Shown: one piece after another, positions 35,282-53,701 of the stretch
Layout: every line of letters starts with the position of its first letter
Position numbering within the stretch: position 1 is the stretch's first letter
NCBI GenBank assembly: GCA_049322675.1
Contig: JBMORM010000009.1
Coordinates: forward strand, 92,995 to 156,994
Direction: 5' to 3'
Source: Patescibacteria group bacterium
GTDB lineage: Bacteria > Patescibacteriota > JAHJAL01
Length of the DNA: 64,000 nucleotides
Position numbers and translations under genes: made by a program
Notes under the pieces: model-generated
What the model was told of the DNA's origin: nothing
Databases searched by the model: none
Seen by the model: only the letters and a program-made list of their open reading frames with translations

Positions 35282-36193
35282 TTAAATGGCATTCGCACCA
35301 GCAACTATTTCTGCTAGTTCTTGAGTTATTGCTGCTTGTCTGGCTTGGTTGTAAGCCAGATTAAGACTATCGATCATGTCGGTAGCCGATTTGTGAGCAT
35401 TTTTCATAGCCAGCATGCGGGCGGAATGTTCGGAAGCGTCGGACTCTAGTACGGCTTGATAGATTTGGAGTTCTAATATTCGAGGCAGGATTTGGTCTAA
35501 GACCAATTTCGGGGAGGGCTCATACCGGTAGTCAATTTTCAATTTCCAATTTTCAATTTTCAAAATATCAGATTTATCATTAGAGACGACTCCGATTTCT
35601 GAATCCGGGCGGGTTTTTAGGGGTAATAATTTTTTAATGATTGGTTGCTGTTTTAGAGTTGAAACAAAGTCGGTATAGACTAGATAAACGGCTTGATATT
35701 GTTTTTGAACAAAACCGTCTAATAATAATTTGGAGATTGGTGAAATAGTTGAGATTTCGTTCAATAAATCAGGTTTGTCAAAATCGGCAGCAATATCGTA
35801 CTTTAGGCGACGAAGTTGGTCACGAACTTTGCGTCCGAAAGTAAGAAAAGTATGATTGATATTTTTCTGTGAAAGTTCTTTACTGCAGGATATACACTTT
35901 TTTAATACATTGCCATTGAAAGCACCGCACAATCCCCTATTTGATGAAACAACTAGGATAGCGGCGTGTTTTATTTTTTTCGGATTTTTAAGCAAGGGAT
36001 GAATATATTTTGGATTGGAAAGAGATATTTTTTCGATTATATTCCAGGCCAAGTTTGAATAATTTCTGGACAAGACAACTTGACTTACCGCTTTGCGCAT
36101 CTTGGAAGCTGCCACTAGCTCCATGGCTTTGGTAATTTTTTTAGTATTTTGGATTGATTTAATCCGATGTTTTATTTCTTTACTTTGGGACAT
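35282..36193 (-). CDS. atpG: F0F1 ATP synthase subunit gamma
   Basis: 303 aa with conserved N- and C-terminal helices (..LAMKNAHKSATDMIDSLNLAYNQARQAAITQELAEIV). Confidence 0.85.
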   Translation of the reverse strand: MSQSKEIKHRIKSIQNTKKITKAMELVAASKMRKAVSQVVLSRNYSNLAWNIIEKISLSNPKYIHPLLKNPKKIKHAAILVVSSNRGLCGAFNGNVLKKCISCSKELSQKNINHTFLTFGRKVRDQLRRLKYDIAADFDKPDLLNEISTISPISKLLLDGFVQKQYQAVYLVYTDFVSTLKQQPIIKKLLPLKTRPDSEIGVVSNDKSDILKIENWKLKIDYRYEPSPKLVLDQILPRILELQIYQAVLESDASEHSARMLAMKNAHKSATDMIDSLNLAYNQARQAAITQELAEIVAGANAI

Positions 36194-36202
36194 AGTACGA
36201 GT

Positions 36203-37726
36203 TTATTTTTGAACGTAATCAATAGTCGTTTTGAATGTTTCGATTGTTTTAATCAATTTCTTTTCGGTTTTTTCATCCAGTTCTTTTTTTTCTTCGATTT
36301 CGGACAATATTTTGCTAGAGTCTGTTTTTAGATAATCATTCAATTCGTTTTGGAAGCGCTTGATGTTTTCGACAGCGATATCATTGAGATAACCATTGTT
36401 GGCGGCATACAATATCACTACTTGATTCGCCACCGGCAAAGGAGAATATTGAGTTTGTTTCAATAGTTCGGTTAAACGTTTGCCGAGTTCGATCTGTTTT
36501 TTGGTTTCTTCATCGAGATCGGAGCCAAATTGGGCAAAGGCTTCCAATTCGCGGAATTGAGCCAGACTCAATTTCAATTTACCGGCGACTTTTTTCATGG
36601 CTTTGATCTGGGCAGTCGAGCCGACGCGCGATACTGACAAACCGATATTCAATGCCGGACGAATACCTTTATAGAAAAGGTCCGCTTCCAGGAAAATTTG
36701 ACCGTCGGTAATAGAAATGACATTGGTTGGAATATAGGCCGAGATATCGCCGGCTTGAGTTTCAATAATCGGCAAAGCGGTTAAAGAACCACCGCCAAAA
36801 TCCTGACTAAGTTTGGCGGCGCGTTCCAACAATCGGGAGTGAAGATAAAAAACGTCACCGGGATAAGCTTCGCGTCCAGGTGGTCGACGCAACAGCAATG
36901 AAATTTGACGATAGGCCACAGCATGTTTGGATAGATCATCATATACCACCAAGACATCTTTGCCTTGATCCATAAAATATTCGCCAATAGCGCAGCCCGA
37001 GTATGGTGCGATGTAATTTAGTGAAGCGGAATCAGAAGCGCCAGCCACAACTACAACAGTGTAATCCATAGCGCCATGTTCTTTCAGTTTATCAATAATA
37101 CGAGCTACTTTGGATTTTTTTTGACCAATTGCGACATAGATACAAATCATGTCTTGGCCCTTCTGATTAATAATGGCATCAATAGCCAAGGCGGTTTTGC
37201 CAGTTTGCCGATCGCCGATAATCAACTCGCGTTGACCCCGACCAATTGGAATAATACTATCAATTGCCAGAATACCGGTTTGTACCGGCTGATTGACTTT
37301 TTTACGCGTAATGACGCCGGGAGCGATTTTTTCCACCGGATAATATTTTTTTGATTTAATCGCACCTTCATTATCTTGTGGCTCACCAAGCGGGTTGACA
37401 ACACGTCCAATCAGGTTATCACCAACAGGAATAGACAAGATTCGGCCAGTGGTTTTTACTTCGTCACCCTCAGACACATTGGAATATTCTCCCAAAATAA
37501 TCGCGCCAATAGTGTCTTCATTGAGGTTTAGAGCCACGCCCAGTTGACCGGAGGAAAATTCGATAATTTCTTGGGACATGACTTGAGATAGTCCGTCGAT
37601 AATAGCTATTCCGTCACCAACTTCCAATACCCGACCAATTTGTTCTACTACCGGTTTTTTTTCTATTTTGGCAAATTCTTTTTTTAGTTCGGAAAGAATG
37701 TCATTTTTGTCTAAAATTTTAGGCAT
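36203..37726 (-). CDS. atpA: F0F1 ATP synthase subunit alpha
   Basis: 507 aa with Walker [10 protein letters not shown] and strong global identity. Confidence 0.95.
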
Positions 37727-37843
37727 ACAAAAGATTTAATTTTTAATTTCTAATTTAAAATTTTCAATCATTTAAGAAAATTGCCGATTGCAATATTTAA
37801 GAGTTGATTGAAAATCATAAATCATAAATTGAAAACAAAAAAA

Positions 37844-38284
37844 TTAGATAGATTTTTGCAGCTCTTCAAGAGCAGTTATCAGATTTTTCGGTAATTTTTG
37901 ATCTCGCTCGACCGGTCTTTTTTGTAGGATTGATTTTACGGAAAAATCAATTTTCCAATCTGAGGAATACACAATCTGGCCACCAATCAATTTTTCGTCG
38001 ATAATATTGGATACCTCCACTGGTTGATCAATTTTTTTTGATATGGTTTCGGATAAATGATGAAGGTTATTCAGTGGCGAAGAAGATACGATATCGATAA
38101 AAAGTGTTTGGTTTTTGCGATCAATCAAATCAGATATTTCTTCAATAATTTTTGGCAACTTGTCTTGATCTTTTTTTGATACAACAAAAGTTACAAAATC
38201 GAGGATGATTTTTTTACGAAGGGGTCGGTTGCCCGACAGTGAATCATACAATAGATTGGCATATTGTTGAGGACTGATTGACAT
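37844..38284 (-). CDS. atpH: F0F1 ATP synthase subunit delta (OSCP), short form
   Basis: 146 aa. Assignment is by position between atpF and atpA plus OSCP-like helical composition. Confidence 0.6.
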   Translation of the reverse strand: MSISPQQYANLLYDSLSGNRPLRKKIILDFVTFVVSKKDQDKLPKIIEEISDLIDRKNQTLFIDIVSSSPLNNLHHLSETISKKIDQPVEVSNIIDEKLIGGQIVYSSDWKIDFSVKSILQKRPVERDQKLPKNLITALEELQKSI

Positions 38285-38829
38285 TATTTATTGATTAATG
38301 ATTCCAGAGATTGCTTGATCATTTCTCGATCGGAATCTTTGGTTATTTTTTTCGCTAAAACTTGTTCGGTAATCGAAATAACCAAGTCAGACAGATCCGA
38401 CAAGATATCGTTTCTAATTTTTGAGGCCATGGAAATGTTTTGTTTTTGCGCTTTGGCAAGTATAGCTTCTGCTTCGAGTTTGGCGACTGACAAAATTTCC
38501 TCTTTTTGGGCCGAGGCAGAAACCGTGGCAATCTGTATGATTTCTTTTGCTTCAATCCTGGCTTTTTTTAGGCTCTCTTCTCTTTCTTTGGCAATTTTCA
38601 ACAACTCTTCTTCAATTCTTCCGCTATCTTCCAGGCTTTTTTTTATCTTTTCTTCTCGACTGCGTAACAGATTCAAAATAGGTTGATATAAAAAATGATT
38701 TAGTACCAACAACAAGATAATAAAATTAATTACTTGAGCGAGAAAAAGTCTCCAGTCAATACCCAATTTTGAAATTAGATCCATAGATTTTGTTATTTTT
38801 ATACAAAAGTTCCAAGTTTCAAGCCCCAA
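38284..38829 (-). CDS. atpF: F0F1 ATP synthase subunit b
   Basis: 181 aa with an N-terminal TM followed by a long charged coiled coil. Confidence 0.7.
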   Translation of the reverse strand: MGLETWNFCIKITKSMDLISKLGIDWRLFLAQVINFIILLLVLNHFLYQPILNLLRSREEKIKKSLEDSGRIEEELLKIAKEREESLKKARIEAKEIIQIATVSASAQKEEILSVAKLEAEAILAKAQKQNISMASKIRNDILSDLSDLVISITEQVLAKKITKDSDREMIKQSLESLINK

Positions 38830-38877
38830 GCTTCAAAAATAGTAATCTTTGCGACTTGCGACTTGTGCTTGTAACCT

Positions 38878-39123
38878 TTAGGCAAATTTAATAATCAAAG
38901 CGATGACCAATGCATAAATCGCAATAGCTTCCGCGAAAGCAACTGCCAAAATCATAGCTGTTTGAATTTTTGGGGCTGCTTCTGGATTACGACCAATCGC
39001 TTCTACCGCCTTGGCTGCCATTTTTCCGATTGAAAAGGCTGGAACCATGCCGCCAATTGCGATAGTTGCTGCAGCGGCGATAATTTTGTACATCTCCAAA
39101 TTACTGCTAACTTCTCCTTCCAT
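38878..39123 (-). CDS. atpE: F0F1 ATP synthase subunit c
   Basis: 81 aa hairpin proteolipid with GRNPEA and AFAEAIAIYALVIAL motifs. The conserved acidic residue is in helix 2. Confidence 0.8.
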   Translation of the reverse strand: MEGEVSSNLEMYKIIAAAATIAIGGMVPAFSIGKMAAKAVEAIGRNPEAAPKIQTAMILAVAFAEAIAIYALVIALIIKFA

Positions 39124-39175
39124 AGTGACTCCTTGACTTAATTATTTAATTATTAATAATCTCAAAATAGCTATG

Positions 39176-39943
39176 CTAATGCTCGGCATGATGTGACGTA
39201 GAGGCATTTTTGATAAAAACCAACGTCAACATGGAAAAAACTAAGGCCTGGATAAATCCCACGAATATCTCGAGAAACAAAAAAGGCAATGGAACGAGAT
39301 ACGGGACCAAAAAGCCAACAACCAACAACAATACTTCGCCGGCGAAAATATTACCAAACAAGCGAAAAGAAAAAGAAATTACTTTTGCAAATTCGGAAAT
39401 AATTTCCAAGGCGCCGACAAAAGTGCCGATAATATATGGTTTCTGCCAGGGGCTAACAAAGAATTTTTGCGCGTACTCACTGATTCCAAGAGAAATAATA
39501 CCATATACCTGCACCGAAAGCATAGCTATCAGGGCGATAGCTAGAGTAATATTCATGTCGGCAGACGCGGAACGAATAAATGGAATAAGGATTGTTTCTC
39601 CATGATGTTCTTCCCAGATACCGATGCTGCCCAAACCGGGCACCAGTTCAATCCAGTTGGATAAAATAACAAACAAAAAGATGGTAAAAACAACAGGGAA
39701 AAAAGCATAAGCTTGTTTGCGATTTTGAATAATCGATTCCATAAAATCAATTGCACCCGATATAACTATTTCAATCATATTTTGCAGGCCGGAAGGAATT
39801 TTTTTTATAAACCGATTGAATATTAGGGAAAAAATAATCAGAGATAAAGAAATTACCAATGAGACCACCAGAGTATTGGTGATCGGAAAATCTCCGAGAT
39901 GAGCGATAGGTTCGGCCGCCAATGATATTGCAGGAGCGCTCAT
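39176..39943 (-). CDS. atpB: F0F1 ATP synthase subunit a
   Basis: 255 aa polytopic protein with the FRLFGNIFAGEVLL motif containing the essential Arg. Confidence 0.8.
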   Translation of the reverse strand: MSAPAISLAAEPIAHLGDFPITNTLVVSLVISLSLIIFSLIFNRFIKKIPSGLQNMIEIVISGAIDFMESIIQNRKQAYAFFPVVFTIFLFVILSNWIELVPGLGSIGIWEEHHGETILIPFIRSASADMNITLAIALIAMLSVQVYGIISLGISEYAQKFFVSPWQKPYIIGTFVGALEIISEFAKVISFSFRLFGNIFAGEVLLLVVGFLVPYLVPLPFLFLEIFVGFIQALVFSMLTLVFIKNASTSHHAEH

Positions 39944-40005
39944 AGTGATTTAAAAAATGATTTTACACATAAATGGTTTTTGATGTTTGAAAGATAAAAA
40001 TATTC

Positions 40006-40251
40006 TTATTTTTTGTCATCAAATTCGGCAGTCATTTTGATAGTTTTTTGATAAACAAAAATACTGGTAATCAATAAAGAAAAAAATAATCCAATCAAAA
40101 GAAAAATAGGGGAAGTATTGAAATGCTTATCCAGCCAACGTCCGGATAAAGCAAAAACGATTAGAGGAATAGCAATCAAATATCCCAATTCCCAAGCCAA
40201 AGACAAAGCGGAAAAAGACGAAGTATTTTTGATAGGTTTTTTTCCAGGCAT
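40006..40251 (-). CDS. AtpZ/AtpI-like small membrane protein (first gene of atp operon)
   Basis: 81 aa. The motif LGYLIAIPLIVFALSGRWLDKHF matches the AtpZ signature G....P...G...G.WLD. Confidence 0.55.
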   Translation of the reverse strand: MPGKKPIKNTSSFSALSLAWELGYLIAIPLIVFALSGRWLDKHFNTSPIFLLIGLFFSLLITSIFVYQKTIKMTAEFDDKK

Positions 40252-40408: not shown

Positions 40409-40437
40409 TTGTTATTTTTCTCCCTACATGTTATAAT
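40409..40437 (+). promoter_or_regulatory. Sigma-70-like promoter for the 40483 gene cluster
   Basis: TTGTTA (40409-40414), a 17-nt spacer, then TATAAT (40432-40437). A GAGGA ribosome-binding site lies 6 nt before the ATG at 40483. Confidence 0.45.
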
Positions 40438-40482: not shown

Positions 40483-40800
40483 ATGCAAAAAATTATCAAT
40501 CCAGAGAATTTTGTCGATAACAGTATTTTTGATTTGTTGGAAATAAGAGAAATGTCCGACGAAAAAAAGAACGAGATCATGAAAGACATGATGACCACGA
40601 TCAACAATCGTGTTTTGGCCCGTACTTTAGATTTGGTGGATGAACGAAATTTGCGAAAGTCATTTGAGTCATTGCTTGATAAAAATGACCAGGCCAAAAT
40701 TGAATCGTTTTTATCAGAAAATAATATTGATTTAAAAATAATTGCCGTAGAAGAAGCAATGCTCTACAAGATGGAATTGGTTAATACTTTAGGAAAATAG
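40483..40800 (+). CDS. Small helical hypothetical protein (cassette 1 small partner)
   Basis: 105 aa from ATG 40483 (the ORF track begins at GTG 40471). It is a paralogue of the 99-aa ORF at 43821 (S.E.K..I...........A.....L......K....L...D....I..FL pattern). Confidence 0.45.
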   Translation: MQKIINPENFVDNSIFDLLEIREMSDEKKNEIMKDMMTTINNRVLARTLDLVDERNLRKSFESLLDKNDQAKIESFLSENNIDLKIIAVEEAMLYKMELVNTLGK

Positions 40801-40802
40801 CC

Positions 40803-43046
40803 ATGCAAAAAATAATAGAACACAATAAATTTCCGGAGTTGAAACCCCCATCTACCCTTTTCTTGGACAAGGCAAAAGAAGGGAAGAAAAATGGCGAGAA
40901 ACAACAAAAACCAGAGGAAAATCCAGAAAAAGAAAATACCGTAAAAGATTCCGAAAAAAATAAAGTTGAAAATTCGGAAAAGATAAAAGAGCTGGAAGAG
41001 TTAGTCAAAAAAATAAACCAGGATGAAAAAGCCAGGTTTGAAAAAAGATTTGGTAAAGGACTCTGGGGAAAAGTCAATCATTGGTTAAATAACACCGATA
41101 AGGGCAAGATGGTCAAGATGTCGGCCAAGATAATTTTGGGCGGAACAGCATTGGTTTCGGTAACCGCAATGAGCGGTGGCTCAGCGATTTGGTTGGCTCC
41201 TTTGGTCTATGGCGCCGGTTCAAAAAATGTTATCGATGGGGCGATAGAAGCGGTTCAATACTTTGCCAAGGGAGGAGGAAGAAATAGATTAAAAATGGAG
41301 GCTGAAAAACAAAACACTTTATTATCATTAAAATCAAAAGCGAAAAAGTTATTTAGCGGCGAGAAAAAAGACCAAGACAACAAAGAAATGTTTATGTCGC
41401 CTGAAGAATATTTGATAAATACGATAAAGGTTTGTGAACAAAATGTCAGCAATGTAATCACAGAAAATATGAAAGCGGAAGCCAGGGCGAAATTGTGGAG
41501 AACTATTTTATCCTCTACCGCCACCATCGGTTTCGGGTTGGTAAATGGAATTCCATTGGGAATCCAAAATTTTGACGGCAAAGAGATGTCGCATCATGTT
41601 TTTTGGTCGTTACGCAAAGGACTGGAATTTGTATATAATACGGGTGAAAAATTGGCCCAGACTCATTCATCCAATCTTTTTGGCCTTGCCACTCATACCA
41701 TGGGCGAGGTTGGAACAAAATTCGTCCCAAGCAAACTACTCGTCGGTCCGGCCACCGCAATCATTGGTACCTTTATAAAGGAGGGGGCAAAAGTCGGAAA
41801 AACTGGATGGCAAAAAATCCATGGCGGGGGCAAAAAAATATTGGATCAGATTTCCCAAAAAAAACAAAATATAATAATTGAGGTGGTTTCCGACGAGACG
41901 AATAGTGATTTATTGAAAGTGGACGAGATATCTGATTCCATTCCCAAATCTATTGATGAACTCAAAAAAAATAAAAAAGAAACTGTTTTCAAAAATAATG
42001 AAAATGGCGATATTACTAAGGTTTGGTTAGACGAAAATATCGAATCCATAAAAAATCAAGAGTACCTTTTGTTTGCAAAAAAAATCCATGAATGTGCAGA
42101 TATTTGTTTTTCACTAGCAAAAAATGATATTCCACTGGAAAATATTAAAGAGAAATATATTGCGTTTAAAAAAATATTAATAAAGGAATTAAAAAGAAAT
42201 GATTGGAATCCTCAAGTATTTTTTTCGTCATTGAAACGTAATCAACCTGATACCCAATTAATCGATTGCTTTGTTGATGGTTGGGGTAGCCTAGAAAAAT
42301 ATCTTCAAGCAAGTATCATTTCTGCACAAAAAAACAATAAGAATGAAAAAGAAGATATTAGTCCCTTTTACGATCTTCCAGTTGAGTCCAATCGAACGGT
42401 TATGGCGGTGGAAAACTTGGAAAAAAACGGATTATTTGAAAAAGGTGACGAGGAATCTCCATATGGATATTTTGTTTCCACAAACGGTCAGAAATATCCG
42501 GTTCTTGGTCGCAATAGCGAAAAAATTAACGGAGGAGTATATCCAGGTGGAAGCGATAGAGAAATATTGGTCGTGGACGATCAAGACGAAACAATAAGAG
42601 AGTCTTACAACGAGTTAAAAAGTCAGCTCGACCAATTTTTCAAAAACAAAAAAAACAGACACGAAAAAGATATTTTGCAAAAAGTTTATGCATATGTAGA
42701 AGAAAAAATGCCTTTCGATGAAAATAGAGTGAATATGATAATTGCCTTCAAAGAAAATCAATTGAATAGTCTGGGAGTGTTTATCCGAATGAAAGCCGGT
42801 GTGTGCCGACATCAAGCTTTGTTCGTAGCCTATTTACTGGAAAAATTGAAAGAAGAAAATTATCTAAAAGGTAATTTTAGTATGGAACGAAATAGTATCA
42901 AACAGGTCGGCGCTCATGTTTGGATTAGATATACCAGGAGAGATGGACTGGAATATATCCTGGACACCGCCTTAAGGTTTTTTGGTACAAAAAAGGAAGC
43001 CAAGAAAAAAGGGGCCTGGAAGTACGAATTGGAAAATCGCAAATAA
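40803..43046 (+). CDS. Large lineage-specific protein with Gly-rich membrane segment and C-terminal transglutaminase-like cysteine-peptidase domain
   Basis: 747 aa. The N-terminus is K/E-rich. A hydrophobic Gly-zipper-like segment reads ILGGTALVSVTAMSGGSAIWLAPLVYGAGS. The C-terminal triad is in the canonical order: AGVCRHQALFVAYLL (Cys), GAHVWIRY (His), ILDTA (Asp). Confidence 0.5.
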   Translation: MQKIIEHNKFPELKPPSTLFLDKAKEGKKNGEKQQKPEENPEKENTVKDSEKNKVENSEKIKELEELVKKINQDEKARFEKRFGKGLWGKVNHWLNNTDKGKMVKMSAKIILGGTALVSVTAMSGGSAIWLAPLVYGAGSKNVIDGAIEAVQYFAKGGGRNRLKMEAEKQNTLLSLKSKAKKLFSGEKKDQDNKEMFMSPEEYLINTIKVCEQNVSNVITENMKAEARAKLWRTILSSTATIGFGLVNGIPLGIQNFDGKEMSHHVFWSLRKGLEFVYNTGEKLAQTHSSNLFGLATHTMGEVGTKFVPSKLLVGPATAIIGTFIKEGAKVGKTGWQKIHGGGKKILDQISQKKQNIIIEVVSDETNSDLLKVDEISDSIPKSIDELKKNKKETVFKNNENGDITKVWLDENIESIKNQEYLLFAKKIHECADICFSLAKNDIPLENIKEKYIAFKKILIKELKRNDWNPQVFFSSLKRNQPDTQLIDCFVDGWGSLEKYLQASIISAQKNNKNEKEDISPFYDLPVESNRTVMAVENLEKNGLFEKGDEESPYGYFVSTNGQKYPVLGRNSEKINGGVYPGGSDREILVVDDQDETIRESYNELKSQLDQFFKNKKNRHEKDILQKVYAYVEEKMPFDENRVNMIIAFKENQLNSLGVFIRMKAGVCRHQALFVAYLLEKLKEENYLKGNFSMERNSIKQVGAHVWIRYTRRDGLEYILDTALRFFGTKKEAKKKGAWKYELENRK

Positions 43047-43063
43047 TTCTATTTTTCTCAAGG

Positions 43064-43090
43064 AAAAAACCCGCTGACCAAGCGGGTTTA
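43064..43090 (-). terminator. Rho-independent terminator for the minus-strand gene 43185-43550
   Basis: The minus-strand reading is aaaCCCGCTtggtcAGCGGGttttttcc. Confidence 0.45.
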
Positions 43091-43116
43091 AGTTTGTTTA
43101 AAAAGAAGAAGGAGAG

Positions 43117-43144
43117 GATCCCGTGGCAAGCGGGATTTTTTTTG
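43117..43144 (+). terminator. Rho-independent terminator for the plus-strand gene ending at 43046
   Basis: gATCCCGtggcaagCGGGATtttttttg. Confidence 0.55.
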
Positions 43145-43184
43145 AATGGAGGGAGGGGAGGAATTTTGGGGGCGGCTCAAGTTT

Positions 43185-43550
43185 TTATCTGTACAGCTTG
43201 AGCCATTTCAAAATTTGTTTAAATACTTTTCCGGCTACGATGAACCAGAAAAATATTCCAAATTTGAAATACCCCCAAATTCCTACAATAGTGAATATCA
43301 TCCCTCCGATGATAATCACTATCCCTCCGATAATCAGGCCGAATGGCCCGATAAATCGAAGAAAATCGTCTGGATGGTGATTGGCCATCCAGGCCAACCC
43401 GGTTGTCCCGACGATCAAGAGACAACCTGTGAAAAATGTGAGGGCCACCGCTATAAATATTATTAAAGCGCAGCCGGTGGCCCCCATATATAATTTTATC
43501 CAGAAATTTAAGCCCTGCCACCAGGCGAGGGCTTTTTGCCACATATTCAT
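43185..43550 (-). CDS. Small polytopic membrane protein
   Basis: 121 aa with 3-4 TM helices. A strong AGGAGG Shine-Dalgarno lies upstream of the ATG at 43550. I preferred it over the overlapping low-complexity plus-strand ORF 43146-43466. Confidence 0.5.
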   Translation of the reverse strand: MNMWQKALAWWQGLNFWIKLYMGATGCALIIFIAVALTFFTGCLLIVGTTGLAWMANHHPDDFLRFIGPFGLIIGGIVIIIGGMIFTIVGIWGYFKFGIFFWFIVAGKVFKQILKWLKLYR

Positions 43551-43820
43551 CCTTTCTTTACCTCCTTTCTATATTAAGGTGAAAGGATTTTTTCCTTCTT
43601 CTTTTTAAAGAGCATTTGCTCTTTGTTTTTATTTTGGCGTTTATTATATCATAATTTCATATTATTATCAAGACTTTGAGTCATTCTTATGATACAAATC
43701 GCAGAAATAATGTATGATATTAATTTTCAACATCTAATTTTGTCTTTATCCATTGACAAAATTATAATAATTTAACATTATGTAGTCTGATAATTAATCT
43801 AATAACAAAACTTATAAAAA

Positions 43821-44120
43821 ATGAAAAAAGATTATTGGGACAAATATATAGATGACTTATTGATTGATTTGGGAGCGGACGATTGGTCTAAAGAAGAAAG
43901 AGACAAGATACGAGATCAAGTGGCGGAAGCCTGGCAAACTCAGTTGATGGCCGATATCACCGGTAAATTAAATAGTTCTCAAAAAGTAACCTTAAAAACT
44001 ATGTTAAGTGAGGACAAAACAACGCTCCAGATCATCAATTTTCTCTATTCTATCCGTCCGGATATTATGAAAATAGTAGAATCCAGTATGATTGAGTTCA
44101 AAAAACAGTTGTTATCTTGA
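43821..44120 (+). CDS. Small helical hypothetical protein (cassette 2 small partner)
   Basis: 99 aa, paralogous to the 40483-40800 product. Confidence 0.45.
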   Translation: MKKDYWDKYIDDLLIDLGADDWSKEERDKIRDQVAEAWQTQLMADITGKLNSSQKVTLKTMLSEDKTTLQIINFLYSIRPDIMKIVESSMIEFKKQLLS

Positions 44121-44241
44121 TATTTTTTCTTTAGCAATAATCAGTCTGCCACTATCTTTTTGTCTTGACTGAATTGACAATTCCCCCTACAATTATTTCT
44201 TAATATATCTTTATTTTAGAAAATAATAATTTGTTACAAAT

Positions 44242-46494
44242 ATGAAAACTATAGAAAAAGAAAATTTGGTTTTTTCGCCACAAGAAGTTCGTGAATCAAA
44301 GCCAAATGTTAATTTGGAAAAATATCTGGAGAAACACTCTGATTTTAATCAGTTATTAAAAAAACCAAAGAAATCAGATGTTAAAGAAATTACTGATAAA
44401 CATACTTTGGGTTTAGAGAAATCAACCAAGCAATTGGCCGAGACACAAGGATTGGACAAAGAGAGTCAAAAATCATTGGTGGAAAAAACTTCATCTACCT
44501 TTAAAACTATCTGGTCTTTACCGGTAGTCAGAGACGTGATCGCCCAAGGGAAAAATTCTCTTGAAAACATTAAACAACTTGGGACGAACATCAAAAATAC
44601 TCTATATGATTCACTGGGAAATTTATTGAAGTTTGGTCAGGGTGAGACAGATAAATTGGTTTTTCCAAATCAGAAGAAAAATATCGAACAAGTAAAAGCC
44701 AAATTGGCTGAAATCAGAGAAAAAAACGAAAGGATTTTGCGCCAAAACGGATTTTTTGAAAACGAAACCATGAAAAAAGTCGCCAATTTTTTTGGTGAAG
44801 TAAAATCAGCAACTATCGATTTTACTATCGGTGCCGGCACTTTTGTTGCAACGACCGGTATTTTGGCTCCGGTCAATCCTGTAGTAGCAGTTGTGTCCGG
44901 TGTGGCCACAACGGCTGCAGTAATTGGCGGAAAATCGGAATATGACAGGCAAAATAAGGAAAATCAAGCAAGGGTAAAAAATCTAACGGATCGGAAATTG
45001 GAAAATCTCGCGGCTAAAATTAATCAAGAAGAAGACATTTTGACTTTAGTCGCCTATCAAAAGTCTCTACCATTTTTGGCGATAAGCAAAAAAGAAACAG
45101 CCAAGTTGGAAAATGCGTTACTGAATAACATTGACAAAAAGATACAAGAAAACAAGTCAAAGTCAGTCAAATATTCAATCGAAGGCAAAGAGTTGAAGTT
45201 GATTGTGTCAAAAAATGATGAAAAAACAATCGATGACTTGAGCAAAAATTTTATTGAAAATTTTACCAATGACCTAAAGAAAGAAAAATTGGTATTGGAT
45301 CGTAAAAAAATCGCCCAGGAAAGTCTAAGGACAGCTATGGCCGCGCCAAAAAATATCGCCAAAACTGCCTACAACATGTTTTTATCCAATCTCAAGACTC
45401 GCGGACCAGTCTATGCCGCATTACTTACCTTTGCTGTAGCATACAAGTGGAGTACAGGACAAGCTGACGCCCAAGATTTGCACGCTACCATTGATTGGGA
45501 TCAGGTTTGGCACAATGCTCCAGCGGAGATAAAAAAAGCAGTTGGTTTGGACGATGCAAAATTTGGAGAGAATCATCATTACGTTGATAAAGATTTTTCT
45601 GACCCGCACGAAAAACAACAATTTGAAACTTTTTACACAAACAATACCGATAAATTTCAGGTCAATCTGATGGTCAACGGAAAAGAACAAGTTGGCAATT
45701 TTCATCATTATTCTCAAACCGATGCCCAGCATTTTGCCAATATTTTGGACGCGGATGAAAAAAAAGACTTTGGAGTTTCTGAATATGCCAAGATTATTGA
45801 AAAAAATCATGGTATGAGTCCTGCGAATTTGAATGGATTGAGCGACGAGATTCATCTTTTGCCCAAGTTTTTTAAAGAAGCTTCTCCCGAACAAATAAAA
45901 GAATATTTTAGAAATCACAATATCGACATCGATAGTCCCAAAAATTTGGCGGTTGAAAATAATAAGTTTGTCATTGAGCTAATTAACAAAGCTAAAGGCT
46001 TGCCTGACTCGGTCCTAAATAATAAAGACTGGCAAGATAGTTTTAGTGAAATGACTAGAAAAGCCTTGAATATGGCTGACAAATATCCAAAAATATCGGA
46101 GTTGGATTCGGTAAAAAATTTATCTGACAAAGATCTAGAACATCCCGAGATACTACAATGTTTACAGGATTATTTTGCGACTACGAATAAAAGTAATGGA
46201 CCGATTGCTCTAGGTAATCTTGATGGTAATATTGCGGATTATCAAAAATTGTTTCAAAAACACGTACAAGATAATTTAGAAAAGAAGCCGGAAGCCAATT
46301 ATCTTGGTGCAGTTTTGGCTGATACTTATGCCTGGGGGAGAAATAATATAAAGACTATCGTCATCTCAACGGTTGTTGTCGCCTCCTCTCTCGTATTTAA
46401 AAATAGGATCACTAGCGGCGTTTCGTATGTCTGGAGTAAATTGACCAAGAAGAAAAAAGCCAAAGCAACCGGCCTACCAACACTACGATTTTAA
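44242..46494 (+). CDS. Large lineage-specific protein with Gly-rich membrane segment (cassette 2 large partner)
   Basis: 750 aa. An N-terminal K/E-rich region is followed by IDFTIGAGTFVATTGILAPVNPVVAVVSGVATTAAVIGG, analogous to the segment in the 747-aa protein. A C-terminal TM (IVISTVVVASSLVF) is present. No recognizable catalytic domain was found. Confidence 0.5.
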   Translation: MKTIEKENLVFSPQEVRESKPNVNLEKYLEKHSDFNQLLKKPKKSDVKEITDKHTLGLEKSTKQLAETQGLDKESQKSLVEKTSSTFKTIWSLPVVRDVIAQGKNSLENIKQLGTNIKNTLYDSLGNLLKFGQGETDKLVFPNQKKNIEQVKAKLAEIREKNERILRQNGFFENETMKKVANFFGEVKSATIDFTIGAGTFVATTGILAPVNPVVAVVSGVATTAAVIGGKSEYDRQNKENQARVKNLTDRKLENLAAKINQEEDILTLVAYQKSLPFLAISKKETAKLENALLNNIDKKIQENKSKSVKYSIEGKELKLIVSKNDEKTIDDLSKNFIENFTNDLKKEKLVLDRKKIAQESLRTAMAAPKNIAKTAYNMFLSNLKTRGPVYAALLTFAVAYKWSTGQADAQDLHATIDWDQVWHNAPAEIKKAVGLDDAKFGENHHYVDKDFSDPHEKQQFETFYTNNTDKFQVNLMVNGKEQVGNFHHYSQTDAQHFANILDADEKKDFGVSEYAKIIEKNHGMSPANLNGLSDEIHLLPKFFKEASPEQIKEYFRNHNIDIDSPKNLAVENNKFVIELINKAKGLPDSVLNNKDWQDSFSEMTRKALNMADKYPKISELDSVKNLSDKDLEHPEILQCLQDYFATTNKSNGPIALGNLDGNIADYQKLFQKHVQDNLEKKPEANYLGAVLADTYAWGRNNIKTIVISTVVVASSLVFKNRITSGVSYVWSKLTKKKKAKATGLPTLRF

Positions 46495-46517
46495 ATTTTA
46501 AAAAATATATTAATCAT

Positions 46518-48986
46518 ATGAAAAAGAACAATGATAATTTAGTTTTCGCAAGTGTCAAGAAATCAACTTCTTCCGATTTTGGTATTGATGAAAAAGAAAT
46601 ATCCATTTCCGATCAACAAAAAATACTTATCACTGTAATATATGCAGACAAAAAGCGTAAATATAGCGATGTTTTTTCCGCTAAAGACAAAGTGGATTAC
46701 GAATCTATTTCAGATGAATATTTAAAAAAATTCTCCCAACAAACAGGGGCGGATAATATTGATTATTTATTGGCTAATCAATACAAGATTTTTGAGAATA
46801 TCGAGATACAAAAGAAAATCAATCTGGCATTTAATGATTTTTTTACGGAAAAAAAAGAAAAATCAGGTCTTAATCGGGTCTTGAAAGAGATCATCAGCCA
46901 ACCGAAAAAGGATCAAATGGAAAAGGTCAGAAAAGAAATTCAGGCTGTAAAACAAAAAAATGCAGACAAACAAAATATCAAAAACATAACTAGACCCATT
47001 TCCGACAAATCGAATAATGAAATAAAAAAAGATGTTCAAGAAACAAGTGGTTTCTTTTCTAAAATAACAAGAAGAATAACAGGGTTTTTTAGTATAAAGC
47101 CCGCCATTACTCGCAAGATTAATGAAAAACAATTGGCAGAAGATTTAAATACGGAAAGTACTCCTACTGAAGAAATCTCTAAAGATATAGCAAGCCAGCC
47201 GAATAATGAAGATGTTAACAAAGATAACCCGAAAAAAGAAGCAAAGAAAGAGGAACCTTGTTTAAAGTGCTTGGAATTTAGTTTGAGAAGAAGCGGTTCA
47301 CGTTGCGGTAATTGCGGAAAAATACTTGAGAGCGTTGACTTGAACCAAATTGGTAACCTTGAAAAGATATTAAGCTATCACAAGACCATCAACAAAATTG
47401 ATGATGAGGGCGGTATTGGTTCGTGCTATAGAGAACATTTACACAACACTTTGCAAGATCTTATCGAAGACCACTTGATAGATATCAAGACAAGATATTA
47501 CGGCAACGAAGCATTTGAACCTTACGATTTGTATCGAGAATTAGGAGAAATATATACAATAAAATACGAACTCCTGAAAAAAGACTATCTACATAAAAAC
47601 ACAAATGATTCGGAGAAAGATTTTGAAACAAAGATGCAACGAAATACCGATGTCTATAACAAAAAATGCTACGAACATATGGATGAAAAAATCCGAGTTC
47701 TTTCTTCCGTTCTTGGAAAATTTCTTTGTCAGCCAAATGGAGTAGTGCCTGCTATTACCTCATCTCAGATATATTTATTAAAAGCGCATTGCTCGCAATT
47801 GGCATTATCTTTCTATATTGATGAAAATATTTCAATCGAGGAATTTGATTTTTATTCAAAAAAACAAACTCTTTATATTATTGATTCCAATTTAGATTTA
47901 TTTAAACAGATACATCAAACAGTCGATGGATTGAATCCAAATGCTGAACAAAAAAAATTGGTTTCATTTATGGTAGAAGAAAATTTATTAAAGCTGCTAG
48001 AGGAAGACAATGAAATTATAGCTATCGAAGAACTAATAAAATCATTGAGCGAAAAGTCACGCGATATTATCAATCAAGACGGACAAGAAAATTGTGAACA
48101 AAATTCGGAAAACAATTTGATCGCTGCCGATAGCGAGATAGAAATTCCTCATAAAAAAGATCGTAGTATTTTTTTGTCTGACTTGTTCAATAGAGAAGAG
48201 ATAAAGAGATTAGAAAAATTCATTATTTTTGTTACCAAGAAGATAAATAAGCTGATCGATGGAGATTTGGACAAAAAGTATTCTTTGAAACAACAAAGAG
48301 AAATTTTGATTGAAGGCGAAGGGAAAAAATCTTCAATTAAAGAAAAGTTTATTTCCGATGAAATTGAAAAACATATTATTTCGGCAAGCAAGACATTTGA
48401 AAAAGAAAACTTACATAAAAAAAGTAAGAAAAAGGATGAACGAATTGAAATAAATAATATTTTCGTAAGGAACATCAGTTCAATTACCGAAGAATTGATA
48501 GAAAAAATTTACCATGATCAAAAACAATGGATAAACGAGATAGATTTCAACATCCTTAGTCCATATCTAGCAAATGCTTCTATGAATAATCCAAATCTGC
48601 CAAATTCTTCATTGAAAAAATTATATGAGGAAGCTATGGACTATTTGTTTTTATCCACTCGCAACAAGACACATTTGTACCAAAATAATGCAGTTGACAA
48701 GAATCAGTTTACAAACGAATTCTGCATCTGGCTTGACAAAAAACTATCATATTTGGTGTCCGTCGAATTAAACCGGGTAAGCTACGCAGAATTCAAGAGT
48801 TTTCTTGGAACACTTCCAAAAAATAAACGAGGCGATACACGGAAATACAGAAGGAAGAATCCCCTTCTAGTTAATTTCCAACAAGATGAAAAAGATATTT
48901 GGTTGGAAAATTTAGTTAAAAATAGAGATAATAATTTTGTTACCAAAATTTTAAATATAACAGAAAATGATTTGCCGAAATCATAA
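46518..48986 (+). CDS. Large lineage-specific K/E-rich protein with a CxxC...CxxC zinc ribbon
   Basis: 822 aa. The N-terminus NDNLVFASVKK resembles ENLVFSPQEV of the preceding protein. A zinc ribbon reads PCLKCLEFSLRRSGSRCGNCGK. Confidence 0.5.
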   Translation: MKKNNDNLVFASVKKSTSSDFGIDEKEISISDQQKILITVIYADKKRKYSDVFSAKDKVDYESISDEYLKKFSQQTGADNIDYLLANQYKIFENIEIQKKINLAFNDFFTEKKEKSGLNRVLKEIISQPKKDQMEKVRKEIQAVKQKNADKQNIKNITRPISDKSNNEIKKDVQETSGFFSKITRRITGFFSIKPAITRKINEKQLAEDLNTESTPTEEISKDIASQPNNEDVNKDNPKKEAKKEEPCLKCLEFSLRRSGSRCGNCGKILESVDLNQIGNLEKILSYHKTINKIDDEGGIGSCYREHLHNTLQDLIEDHLIDIKTRYYGNEAFEPYDLYRELGEIYTIKYELLKKDYLHKNTNDSEKDFETKMQRNTDVYNKKCYEHMDEKIRVLSSVLGKFLCQPNGVVPAITSSQIYLLKAHCSQLALSFYIDENISIEEFDFYSKKQTLYIIDSNLDLFKQIHQTVDGLNPNAEQKKLVSFMVEENLLKLLEEDNEIIAIEELIKSLSEKSRDIINQDGQENCEQNSENNLIAADSEIEIPHKKDRSIFLSDLFNREEIKRLEKFIIFVTKKINKLIDGDLDKKYSLKQQREILIEGEGKKSSIKEKFISDEIEKHIISASKTFEKENLHKKSKKKDERIEINNIFVRNISSITEELIEKIYHDQKQWINEIDFNILSPYLANASMNNPNLPNSSLKKLYEEAMDYLFLSTRNKTHLYQNNAVDKNQFTNEFCIWLDKKLSYLVSVELNRVSYAEFKSFLGTLPKNKRGDTRKYRRKNPLLVNFQQDEKDIWLENLVKNRDNNFVTKILNITENDLPKS

Positions 48987-51505: not shown

Positions 51506-53701
51506 ATGAACCAAGAAATTGAAGGGCATCAAAGTGTCGAGGAAGTACGGCGGGAGAAATTAAACAAAATTATTCAAATGGGGATAATCCCATATGCTGA
51601 TCGAGGAGAAAAAACTGCCGATATCGCGGCTATACTATCCAATTTTGAAAAATGGATGGAAAAGGATATTTTCGTTTGCGGGCGGATTATGGCTATCAGA
51701 AAACATGGAAAAGCTATTTTTGCGGATTTAAAAGATGATTCGGCGGAGATACAGCTCCATATTAAGGCGGATAATTTTTCCAACAATGAATTTGAATTTT
51801 TTGATGAACTGATTGATATTGGAGATTTTTTGCAAATTTATGGAAAATGTTTCAAAACTAAGCGTGGCGAGAAATCAGTTGAGGTTTCGATGTTCAAACT
51901 TTTATCCAAATCCTTGTTACCTTTACCGGAAAAATGGAAAGGATTACAAGATGCAGAAAAGAGATATCGATGGCGTTATCTGGACTTGTTGACCAATGAC
52001 CAGATCCGTGATCGTTTTCGTTTACGAGCGCGTATGATCAGCGCTATGCGAAAGTTTATGGACGAAAGAGGTTTTTTAGAGGTTGAAACCCCTGTTTTAC
52101 AGTCAAGCGCCGGCGGCGCGATCGCAAAACCATTTTTGTCCTATTATGATGCCATGGATTGTCCGGTCAAATTGAGGATTGCTCCGGAATTATATTTGAA
52201 AAGACTGTTGGTGGCAGGATACGAAAAAGTTTATGAAATTGGCAAGGTATATCGCAATGAGGGACGAGATCCATCTCATCTTCCGGAGTTTACCATGTTT
52301 GAATTTTATCAAGCATATTCAAATTACGAAGATTTGATGACAATGACAGAGGAAATGATCGCCAAGGTTTTGAAAGATACAGTTGGACGAATGTCTGTCA
52401 AAATAGGAGAACATAACATAGATTTAATTCCCCCCTACCCCAGGAAAAATATTTTTGAAATTATTAAAGAATACGGCGGACAGGATTTGTCTCAATACAA
52501 GACAGCACAAGATTTATTGACATATATCAGGCAAGCCGGTATCAAAATTGAAGGGAATTTGGAAAAATTTGGGTATGGTAAATTATTGGATGAAATTTAT
52601 AAAAAAATTGCTCGACCAAAGGTGATTGATCCTGTTTTTTTGATTGATCATCCGATTGAATTGTCTCCTTTAGCTCGAAAAAAAGATGCCGACCCGACCA
52701 GAGTTGATCGTTTCCAATTGATAGTCAATGGTTGGGAAATTTGCAATTCATTTTCCGAGTTGATAGATCCGGTAGACCAAGAGGAAAGGTTCAAAATACA
52801 ATCATCTTTGCGCTCAGGAGGAGATGAAGAAGCGCATGAATTTGACGAAGACTATGTTGAAGCAATGAAATATGGCATGCCGCCGATTGCCGGTTGGGGA
52901 ATGGGATTGGATCGAATGATGTCATTATTGACAGGAGTTGACAATTTGCGTGAGTTGATTTTGTTCCCTTTTGTGAAGAAGAAAGAGAAAGAAGAAAAGG
53001 ACAATATAATCGTTGATAAAAAAGAAATTATTGATAACCCGCCGATAAAACCAAGCAAGGAATTGTTGGATGATTTGGATTCCAAATTGCTTGCCAGTGA
53101 TTTATTTGATGATAATGAGCTGGACAAGTTAAATATTGAGACGATGGGAATTAGTCATGCTGATGCCTTGGAGTTGATGAAAAATAATCTTGAGTCGAAG
53201 AATCTGCAAAAACATAGTCTTGCGGTGGAAGCAATCTTAAAAAAAGTTGCGCAAAAAATCGGGGCTGACGAAGACGTCTGGTCAATTGCTGGTCTATTAC
53301 ACGATATAGACTATGAGAAGACAATGAAAGAACCAACACGACATTGTTTGCTGACTGAAGGTATTTTAAAAGCCAAGAAAGTAAGTCCGTTGATTATTCA
53401 GGCCATCAAAGCTCATAATCCTGAGTGTGGCGGCAAAAGAAAAACCAGATTAGACTACGCTTTGTATGCGATTGATCCCTTGAGTGGCTTTATTATTGCC
53501 TGCGCCTTGGTAACACCGGACAAAAAATTGACAAATTTGACAGTAGAATCAATTTTAAGAAAGTACAAAGAAAAATCATTTGCCAAAAGTGCAAATCGAG
53601 AAGCAATGCTTTCTATTGTCCAATTGGGAATTGAATTGGAAGATTTTGTCGAGTTGGGATTGGAAGCCCTAAAAGAAATTAGTCAGGAACTAGAATTATA
53701 G
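51506..53701 (+). CDS. lysS: Lysyl-tRNA synthetase (class II) fused to a C-terminal HD/HDIG (YqeK-like) phosphohydrolase domain
   Basis: The N-terminal ~500 aa carry the OB-fold anticodon-binding domain and class II motifs (..FLEVETPVLQ.., ..GMPPIAGWGMGLDRMMSLLTG..). A K/E linker follows. Residues ~560-731 contain KHSLAVEAILKKVAQKIG...AGLLHDIDYEK, the H...HD signature of HD-domain hydrolases. Confidence 0.85.
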   Translation: MNQEIEGHQSVEEVRREKLNKIIQMGIIPYADRGEKTADIAAILSNFEKWMEKDIFVCGRIMAIRKHGKAIFADLKDDSAEIQLHIKADNFSNNEFEFFDELIDIGDFLQIYGKCFKTKRGEKSVEVSMFKLLSKSLLPLPEKWKGLQDAEKRYRWRYLDLLTNDQIRDRFRLRARMISAMRKFMDERGFLEVETPVLQSSAGGAIAKPFLSYYDAMDCPVKLRIAPELYLKRLLVAGYEKVYEIGKVYRNEGRDPSHLPEFTMFEFYQAYSNYEDLMTMTEEMIAKVLKDTVGRMSVKIGEHNIDLIPPYPRKNIFEIIKEYGGQDLSQYKTAQDLLTYIRQAGIKIEGNLEKFGYGKLLDEIYKKIARPKVIDPVFLIDHPIELSPLARKKDADPTRVDRFQLIVNGWEICNSFSELIDPVDQEERFKIQSSLRSGGDEEAHEFDEDYVEAMKYGMPPIAGWGMGLDRMMSLLTGVDNLRELILFPFVKKKEKEEKDNIIVDKKEIIDNPPIKPSKELLDDLDSKLLASDLFDDNELDKLNIETMGISHADALELMKNNLESKNLQKHSLAVEAILKKVAQKIGADEDVWSIAGLLHDIDYEKTMKEPTRHCLLTEGILKAKKVSPLIIQAIKAHNPECGGKRKTRLDYALYAIDPLSGFIIACALVTPDKKLTNLTVESILRKYKEKSFAKSANREAMLSIVQLGIELEDFVELGLEALKEISQELEL

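Follow-up and report, generated by a model that had tools for sequence, protein, structure and literature searches.

Genes at the locus

We analyzed a 64-kb stretch of DNA (hereafter the window) from a metagenome-assembled genome (MAG) of the Patescibacteria (candidate phyla radiation, CPR), in which two gene pairs, each encoding a small helical protein and a large protein of about 750 aa, lie between housekeeping operons. The ATP synthase operon (minus strand, 35282-40251) forms the left flank, and infC-rpmI-rplT, greA and lysS, all on the plus strand, form the right one. The genes between them follow in the order small protein 1, large protein 1, a convergent membrane gene, small protein 2, large protein 2 and a third large protein. 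All 5 open reading frames (ORFs) that an earlier note had described from the letters of this DNA alone were found where it had placed them, and NCBI annotates the products as hypothetical proteins (ACOZAR_01385 for the 747-aa protein, ACOZAR_01400 for the 750-aa protein). The features on which the analysis turns are the following:

40483-40800, plus strand: small partner 1 (105 aa, helical, DUF5663-type), with 2 nt between its stop and the start of the large gene
40803-43046, plus strand: large protein 1, 747 aa, with a charged leader, a conserved N-terminal domain, an unassigned middle region and a transglutaminase-like end
40971-41819, plus strand: conserved N-terminal domain (N-domain) of large protein 1, residues 57-339 (hidden Markov model [HMM] search, AlphaFold, conservation map)
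41758-43040, plus strand: exchangeable C-terminal region of large protein 1 (blastn against L007 and L005, amino-acid identity windows, alignment)
42651-42977, plus strand: transglutaminase-like cysteine protease core, about residues 617-725, with C668, H705 and D721 (Pfam and motif positions)
43821-44120, plus strand: small partner 2, 99 aa, a divergent DUF5663-type paralogue (hhalign and HMM with shuffle controls)
44242-46494, plus strand: large protein 2, 750 aa (hydropathy)
46518-48986, plus strand: third large protein, 822 aa, Lys/Glu/Asn-rich and helical

Two homologous small proteins of the DUF5663 type

The earlier note had aligned the 105-aa and 99-aa products along their length. BLASTP between the two gave nothing significant, but the alignment was upheld by profile comparison, as hhalign of the 10-sequence 105-aa family against the three 99-aa orthologues returned a probability of 89% and an E value of 2.2e-6 over 91 collinear columns, about the full length, a result that was reproduced. 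The 105-aa family HMM scored the same three orthologues at 16.9-18.6 bits, while the best of 2000 shuffles of the 99-aa protein reached 10.6 bits and its reversed sequence 1.7. When more distant DUF5663-type partners were added to the profile, the scores of the 99-aa orthologues rose to 17.0-22.7 bits, as expected for true remote homology of the small proteins. These profile comparisons show that the 105-aa and 99-aa proteins are homologues, and they can be regarded as paralogues within the locus.

The family to which they belong is Pfam DUF5663 (PF18908). Ten close relatives of the 105-aa protein were recovered by profile search, nearly all of them under DUF5663; a precomputed Pfam listing assigns PF18908 to the 105-aa protein and to 8 of 9 of its relatives, and the 105-aa family HMM scored an annotated DUF5663 protein (L009 2399-2755) at 115 bits. 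The 105-aa protein and its relatives share with the family their length (about 100-140 aa), their all-helical character and this listing. They differ in that the scores of the window proteins are under the Pfam cutoff or close to it: in a local scan PF18908 gave 17.3 bits on the 105-aa protein against a cutoff of 23.7, and Pfam found no match to the 99-aa protein at E <= 1. The latter, which has orthologues in two related genomes (L005 and L008), is thus a remote DUF5663 relative by profile comparison. DUF5663 has no assigned function and no mention in the literature searched.

A small gene paired with a conserved N-terminal domain across lineages

In 8 of the 9 lineages examined, the gene just upstream of an N-domain gene is of the DUF5663 type, with a gap of 0-20 nt in most. 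The pairing was seen in the window, in L002, L003 and L008, in L004, in L007, on the contig of P0014 (a family member), in L012 and L013 and, twice in tandem, in L009, L010 and L015; the contig of L011 holds no more of the small gene than its end, again upstream of the N-domain gene. The comparison of these genomes shows both the pairing and the existence of an N-domain family, and it bears out the combination of a small and a large gene with variable C-termini that had been read from this one locus. Such an obligate pairing with a large N-domain membrane protein is outside any description of DUF5663 that we found.

Tandem double cassettes are present in L009/L010 and in L015. In L009, the N-domain is unmistakable in each of the two large proteins (E 1e-68 and 6e-84), and the DUF5663-type HMM recognizes the two small ones (115 and 63 bits); therefore, duplicated cassettes are a real feature of the module. 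In these other Patescibacteria, the tandem cassettes (L015 5041-11699, L009 2399-8879) lie between a phosphoribosyltransferase gene and argS/tyrS, with a third large gene after them, which in L009 encodes a protein with a transmembrane segment and a repeat-rich C-terminus.

A word-indexed search with the 747-aa protein returned four close homologues, and their alignment is conserved at residues ~55-340 and not beyond. An exhaustive HMM search with this N-domain recovered 92 cluster representatives of 256-1348 aa, with E values down to 1e-50, in which the domain is close to the N-terminus and the 150-950 residues after it are unrelated in sequence. The statement of the earlier note that no member has a recognizable homologue is thus wrong for the N-terminal domain of the 747-aa protein and for the small protein, which is in DUF5663. 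Three N-domain members carry organism names, which are Patescibacteria or unclassified MAGs, and all are called "hypothetical". Scans of genome and metagenome contig collections returned only already known contigs, and no relatives were found on viral contigs in the scan. No Pfam model covers the N-domain in the window protein or in the 90 family members scanned, and the N-domain family is undescribed in the literature searched.

The AlphaFold model of the N-domain, built from a 78-sequence alignment, is confident (pLDDT 83, pTM 0.74) and consists of long helices and a small beta-sheet, and Foldseek found no specific match for it (best E 0.33 in PDB and 0.15 in BFVD). Along the sequence, helices are followed by a Gly-rich hydrophobic hairpin (about residues 105-146), a coiled-coil hairpin, hydrophobic segments at 233-253 and 305-325 and the small beta-sheet. 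The conserved positions are mostly Gly and Pro in three hydrophobic stretches (a 33-residue hairpin at ~108-140, 233-253 and 305-325), with K109 and R233 at their N-terminal edges, and His264 is conserved in the short beta region. Across the family, hydrophobic segments are found only inside the N-domain (median maximum Kyte-Doolittle [KD] value 1.65), and none of 94 C-terminal regions, which are ~34% charged, reaches KD 1.6. Hydropathy also agreed with the earlier description of both large proteins as having a charged N-terminus followed by a Gly/Ala/Thr-rich hydrophobic stretch. The N-domain is thus predicted to anchor the protein by crossing the membrane an even number of times, with the coiled-coil hairpin and both termini on the cytoplasmic side.

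Across the 90 family members, the domains recognized were GT9, GT2 (weak), DnaJ (weak), Metallophos, SHOCT and Vinculin; other tails have no known domain. In P0073, GT9 (58 bits) is C-terminal to the N-domain, and among the weaker GT2 and Metallophos matches, GT2 and one Metallophos were confirmed in the same position. As sporadic fusions such as GT9 and the weak DnaJ are cytoplasmic domain types, and as the tails have no further hydrophobic segment, these sequences suggest that the C-terminal tails are probably cytoplasmic.

Exchange of the C-terminal tail between close strains

We compared large protein 1 with its counterpart in the genome of contigs L007 and L005, where the flanking DNA matches the window at ~89% identity. 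Similarity is lost at 41758, at residue ~318, and is back at 43040, six bases before the stop codon of large gene 1. Identity between the window and L007 is 88-100% over residues 51-300, within the N-domain, and the proteins are unrelated after about residue 320, the counterpart being a 535-aa protein with a different tail that resembles that of the more distant L008 lineage. The alignments show that the tail has been exchanged between ~89%-identical strains, with sharp breakpoints. In L008 itself (10426-12478) the orthologue of the 747-aa protein is split into ORFs of 541 and 151 aa, which may be a frameshift or an assembly error; an intact 683-aa form is present in L002 and L003.

A transglutaminase-like end on the 747-aa protein

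The tail of the window protein ends in what the earlier note had called a papain/transglutaminase-like triad, and this is confirmed at the sequence level. As an isolated domain it matches Pfam DUF553 (PF04473) with 23.3 bits and E 4.7e-5, above the cutoff of 20.5; in the whole 747-aa protein the score is 20.2 bits, just below it. Transglut_core (PF01841) covers the same residues with E 0.07. The pattern is a helix, ILQKVYAYVEEKMPFDE, followed by G-V-C668, A-H705-V-W and L-D721, with 37 residues from C to H and 16 from H to D, an order and spacing that are canonical, and the motifs are identical in an 87% relative. We conclude that the sequence contains a transglutaminase-like Cys-His-Asp motif, which among the close relatives is present in two only. 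The corresponding papain-like alpha/beta core fold is putative, as there is no sequence match in the PDB and the single-sequence model is unusable.

The C-terminal ~110 residues resemble the transglutaminase-like superfamily in the DUF553 match above cutoff and in the Cys-His-Asp order and spacing. CPR-C4, an active CPR protease of the vasohibin branch of this superfamily, is a stand-alone homodimer with a Cys-His-Leu(carbonyl) triad (PMC9108980), whereas here the domain is terminal to a 747-aa protein that is predicted to be membrane anchored. We considered CPR-C4 as a relative of this domain and found no sequence link: phmmer against PDB sequences gave no match at E <= 10, the CPR-C4 entries 7OB6, 7OB7 and 7PJO included.

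The second large protein

Large protein 2 has a helical N-terminus, a hydrophobic hairpin (residues 190-230), a coiled coil, a hydrophobic segment at ~388-403, a region of ~300 aa and, at the C-terminus, a hydrophobic segment (701-723) with a Lys-rich tail; just two relatives were found. The earlier note had taken the two large proteins as paralogues, and the comparisons are no more than suggestive of this. The 92-member N-domain HMM matches the 750-aa protein with 16.3 bits over residues 146-302, covering the first half of the domain only, a score that local-composition block shuffles of the same protein reach in 0-1 of 1000 cases. The matched part takes in the hairpin, the helices ahead of it and the beginning of the coiled coil, with the N-x-T and L-A-P motifs of the family. 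On the other hand, hhalign placed the 750-aa protein and the N-domain family in the same register with E 0.026 and a probability of 2%, BLASTP among the three large proteins gave nothing significant, the N-domain HMM did not match the distant L008 orthologue of the 750-aa protein and the reciprocal search of the 750-aa family against the N-domain family was empty. From these profile scores, we put the chance that the 750-aa protein is homologous to the N-domain family at a little over one half; its layout would fit that of an N-domain in which a loop has expanded.

These results leave some room for the explanation that only the first pair is a real module and that the second consists of chance neighbours, lineage-specific orphans with a common helical composition. 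In addition to the weak large-protein comparison (the hhalign value and the empty reciprocal search), it would account for the lack of BLASTP similarity in either pair, for a 750-aa family of three members only and for the missing DUF5663 call by Pfam on the 99-aa protein. However, the small-protein match is full-length and collinear in three orthologues, goes from 18 to 21-23 bits with the broader profile and compares with shuffles of at most 10.6 bits. Moreover, other lineages have genuine tandem copies of the module, and the partial N-domain match covers the NxT and LAP motifs of the family around the hairpin. We therefore consider a single real pair unlikely.

A weak likeness to the C-terminal half of DUF5663 (7.3 bits) was also seen within the 750-aa protein, at residues 542-585 (45865-45996, beginning EQIKEYFRNHNIDID), and the same place matches in both orthologues. 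This stretch may be a chance similarity or a remnant of the partner fold.

A hypervariable third protein

The 822-aa protein was compared with its orthologue in a genome with ~90%-identical flanking genes. Identity is 94% at the start and 16-40% after residue ~250, whereas the neighbouring large protein 2 is 76-98% identical throughout in the same comparison. The segment 47286-48900, corresponding to the protein after residue ~256, is hypervariable, with no DNA-level alignment across it. The label of zinc-ribbon protein that it had received refers to a candidate motif: two CxxC pairs (CLKC-x11-CGNC, a CxxC-x11-CxxC arrangement) are present at residues 248-266 (47259-47315), at the edge of the variable part, and are kept in the L005 orthologue, but they are deleted in L008 and the protein has no Pfam match. 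Searches of NCBIfam, PADLOC and PHROGs did not match it either, and it has no similarity to the third protein of L009.

A proposed membrane-anchored module with an exchangeable tail

Taken together, we favour, with a probability of about 0.45, a Patescibacteria-specific module composed of a DUF5663 partner and a membrane-anchored protein with an exchangeable, probably cytoplasmic tail, present here twice in tandem. The module appears to be restricted to Patescibacteria. The unit would consist of a soluble helical DUF5663-type protein of ~100 aa and a large integral membrane protein, usually translationally coupled. The ~280-aa N-domain would anchor the large protein through about four membrane helices, arranged as two hydrophobic hairpins on either side of a cytoplasmic coiled-coil hairpin, holding a fast-evolving, recombination-exchangeable C-terminal payload at the inner membrane face. 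The small protein would most likely act as a stoichiometric partner or an assembly chaperone by binding to the cytoplasmic helices of the anchor. In unit 1, the payload ends in a predicted transglutaminase-fold Cys-His-Asp domain, probably a protease or a cross-linking enzyme with membrane-proximal cytoplasmic substrates. Unit 2 (99 aa and 750 aa) would be a strongly diverged copy, followed by the third rapidly evolving protein. The parts of this model that we infer are its topology, the binding of the small partner, the role of the tail as an enzyme and the relationship of the second large protein to the first.

Several observations weigh against this reading. In one family member, P0068, no small gene lies upstream of the N-domain gene, and a fusion protein of DUF5663 and the N-domain was sought and none was found; gene adjacency is the sole pointer to binding by the small partner. 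The membrane model is suggested by hydropathy and by the N-domain layout in AlphaFold, and the hydrophobic segments of the 747-aa protein of the window peak at KD 1.55, where the usual threshold is 1.6. As for the cytoplasmic tails, the GT9 fusion comes from one gene model in a metagenome, and the DnaJ matches in two family proteins are weak (E ~1e-4) and were not placed within the proteins. The transglutaminase-like end gave a single-sequence AlphaFold pLDDT of 41, with two near-identical sequences for an alignment, and the 750-aa protein is not proven to be a homologue of the N-domain family. Finally, it is surface or conflict proteins, more than cytoplasmic scaffolds, that typically have whole tails replaced between close strains.

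This last point leads to the possibility that the large proteins are surface-exposed host-interaction proteins, with extracellular adhesin-like tails under diversifying selection and the N-domain as their anchor. The hypervariable third protein adds to the tail replacement in this respect, as do the ~300-aa region of the 750-aa protein between hydrophobic segments, which could be extracellular, and a giant CUB-domain protein encoded in the window, which suggests investment in surface proteins. Against it, the chain would have to cross the membrane an odd number of times to place the tail outside, and the layout of the N-domain points to an even number; the tails, ~34% charged and coiled-coil-like, have no secreted-protein domains, and the GT9 and DnaJ fusions are of cytoplasmic types. 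We regard this possibility as quite improbable.

The earlier note had likened the locus to polymorphic effector or toxin systems. On such a reading the N-domain would serve export or insertion, the C-terminal domain would be delivered to a host or competitor and the small protein would be a chaperone or an immunity protein. Part of the likeness stands, namely the small partner, the hydrophobic N-domain and the variable C-terminus. The adjacent gene for a small helical partner and a conserved N-terminus with the C-terminus replaced between ~89%-identical strains are indeed what such systems show, transglutaminase/papain-fold domains serve as toxins elsewhere, and Patescibacteria are commonly episymbionts. 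However, the resemblance is architectural only, because a secretion signal, a co-varying immunity gene, orphan cassettes and toxin domains were not found. Neither a signal peptide nor a trafficking domain was detected, and the N-termini are charged rather than hydrophobic (window proteins and 90 family members with Pfam; NCBIfam on the window). The small partner is encoded upstream and goes with the conserved N-domain, not with the tail; the convergent membrane-protein gene that follows downstream is the same whichever tail is present, hence no immunity gene co-varies with it. No orphan or alternative tail cassettes are present in the 64-kb window, no typical toxin domain occurs across the 90 members, where the transglutaminase-like domain is the only candidate toxin-type fold, the position between housekeeping operons is fixed and PADLOC was negative. 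Delivery of a toxin is, in our view, even less probable than a role at the cell surface.

Among the closest known systems, the LXG-Lap proteins of the type VII secretion system and Rhs/PAAR-Eag proteins of the type VI secretion system share an adjacent small partner, a conserved N-region with hydrophobic helices and C-terminal exchange between close strains; they differ in that no LXG, WXG, PAAR, Rhs or DUF1795 domain is present here. Helical membrane-associated scaffolds (BAR/F-BAR, ESCRT-III/PspA-like) and 4-TM (four-transmembrane) bundles can be named beside them. A more speculative proposal, to which we give little credence, is an undescribed Patescibacteria-specific membrane apparatus that presents or delivers exchangeable tails, here a transglutaminase-fold protease, into the host of the episymbiont; if true, it would be a new kind of polymorphic host-interaction system using no known secretion route.

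A membrane-anchored abortive-infection or defence module, with a cytoplasmic tail that senses infection and a hydrophobic N-domain that disrupts the membrane, appears the least probable of all, as the fast evolution and exchange of tails and third gene and the general resemblance of hydrophobic Gly-rich helices to membrane-disrupting effectors are set against a locus that is syntenic next to the ATP synthase and infC operons rather than in a variable island, matches nothing in PADLOC or PHROGs, is without relatives among the viral contigs, and shows no nuclease, NTPase or sensor domains by Pfam in the window proteins and 90 family members.

Returning to the module with a membrane anchor and an exchangeable tail, it would link the orphan Pfam family DUF5663 to a defined partner, a ~280-aa anchor domain without a Pfam model or fold relative, in a pair that is often found as a tandem duplicate. 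Patescibacteria account for much of bacterial diversity, and the majority of the proteins specific to their lineages have yet to be characterised; the module would offer a concrete two-protein unit to study how reduced cells organise and diversify membrane functions. It also tempers the toxin reading, since the module lies among housekeeping operons and its variable parts are probably intracellular.

Other features of the locus and of the window

The five-gene block between the ATP synthase operon and infC has the same position in three genomes, a shared synteny that we read as vertical inheritance of the module at this locus. NCBIfam, PADLOC and PHROGs gave no meaningful match on the six locus products, and Rfam and tRNA scans of the locus gave no match. 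The remaining features are:

40409-40437, plus strand: promoter-like site upstream of the first cassette (TTGTTA-17-TATAAT with TG), from a consensus scan only
43067-43089, both strands: predicted bidirectional hairpin terminator 3' of large gene 1, with a second hairpin and T-run at ~43117-43145
43185-43550, minus strand: convergent small membrane protein, 121 aa, multi-pass, between the cassettes, with a strong GGAGG Shine-Dalgarno upstream

Promoter-like sites are found ahead of both small genes (40483 and 43821), and that of the first cassette is in the intergenic region from which this cassette and the ATP synthase operon diverge. The intergenic segments 43061-43167 and 43546-43673 are ~80% identical to the distant relative L008, compared with ~65% for the adjacent coding DNA, and contain the two hairpin terminators and the promoter and ribosome-binding site of the small minus-strand gene. 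This convergent gene was absent from the account of the earlier note. Its ORF is kept in L005 (351-743), in L004 and in L008 (12633-12947); an alternative public gene call at the same place is a 106-aa ORF on the plus strand (43146-43466).

Two further genes of the window deserve mention. The lysyl-tRNA synthetase (51506-53701, plus strand, 731 aa) has a C-terminal HD-domain extension, which is conserved in the relative L005. The ORF at 5173-16626 (minus strand) encodes a protein of 3817 aa with five CUB domains (Pfam E 2.6e-59) and a Laminin_G_3 domain (E 2e-16); because CUB domains are unusual in bacteria, it resembles a giant surface protein.

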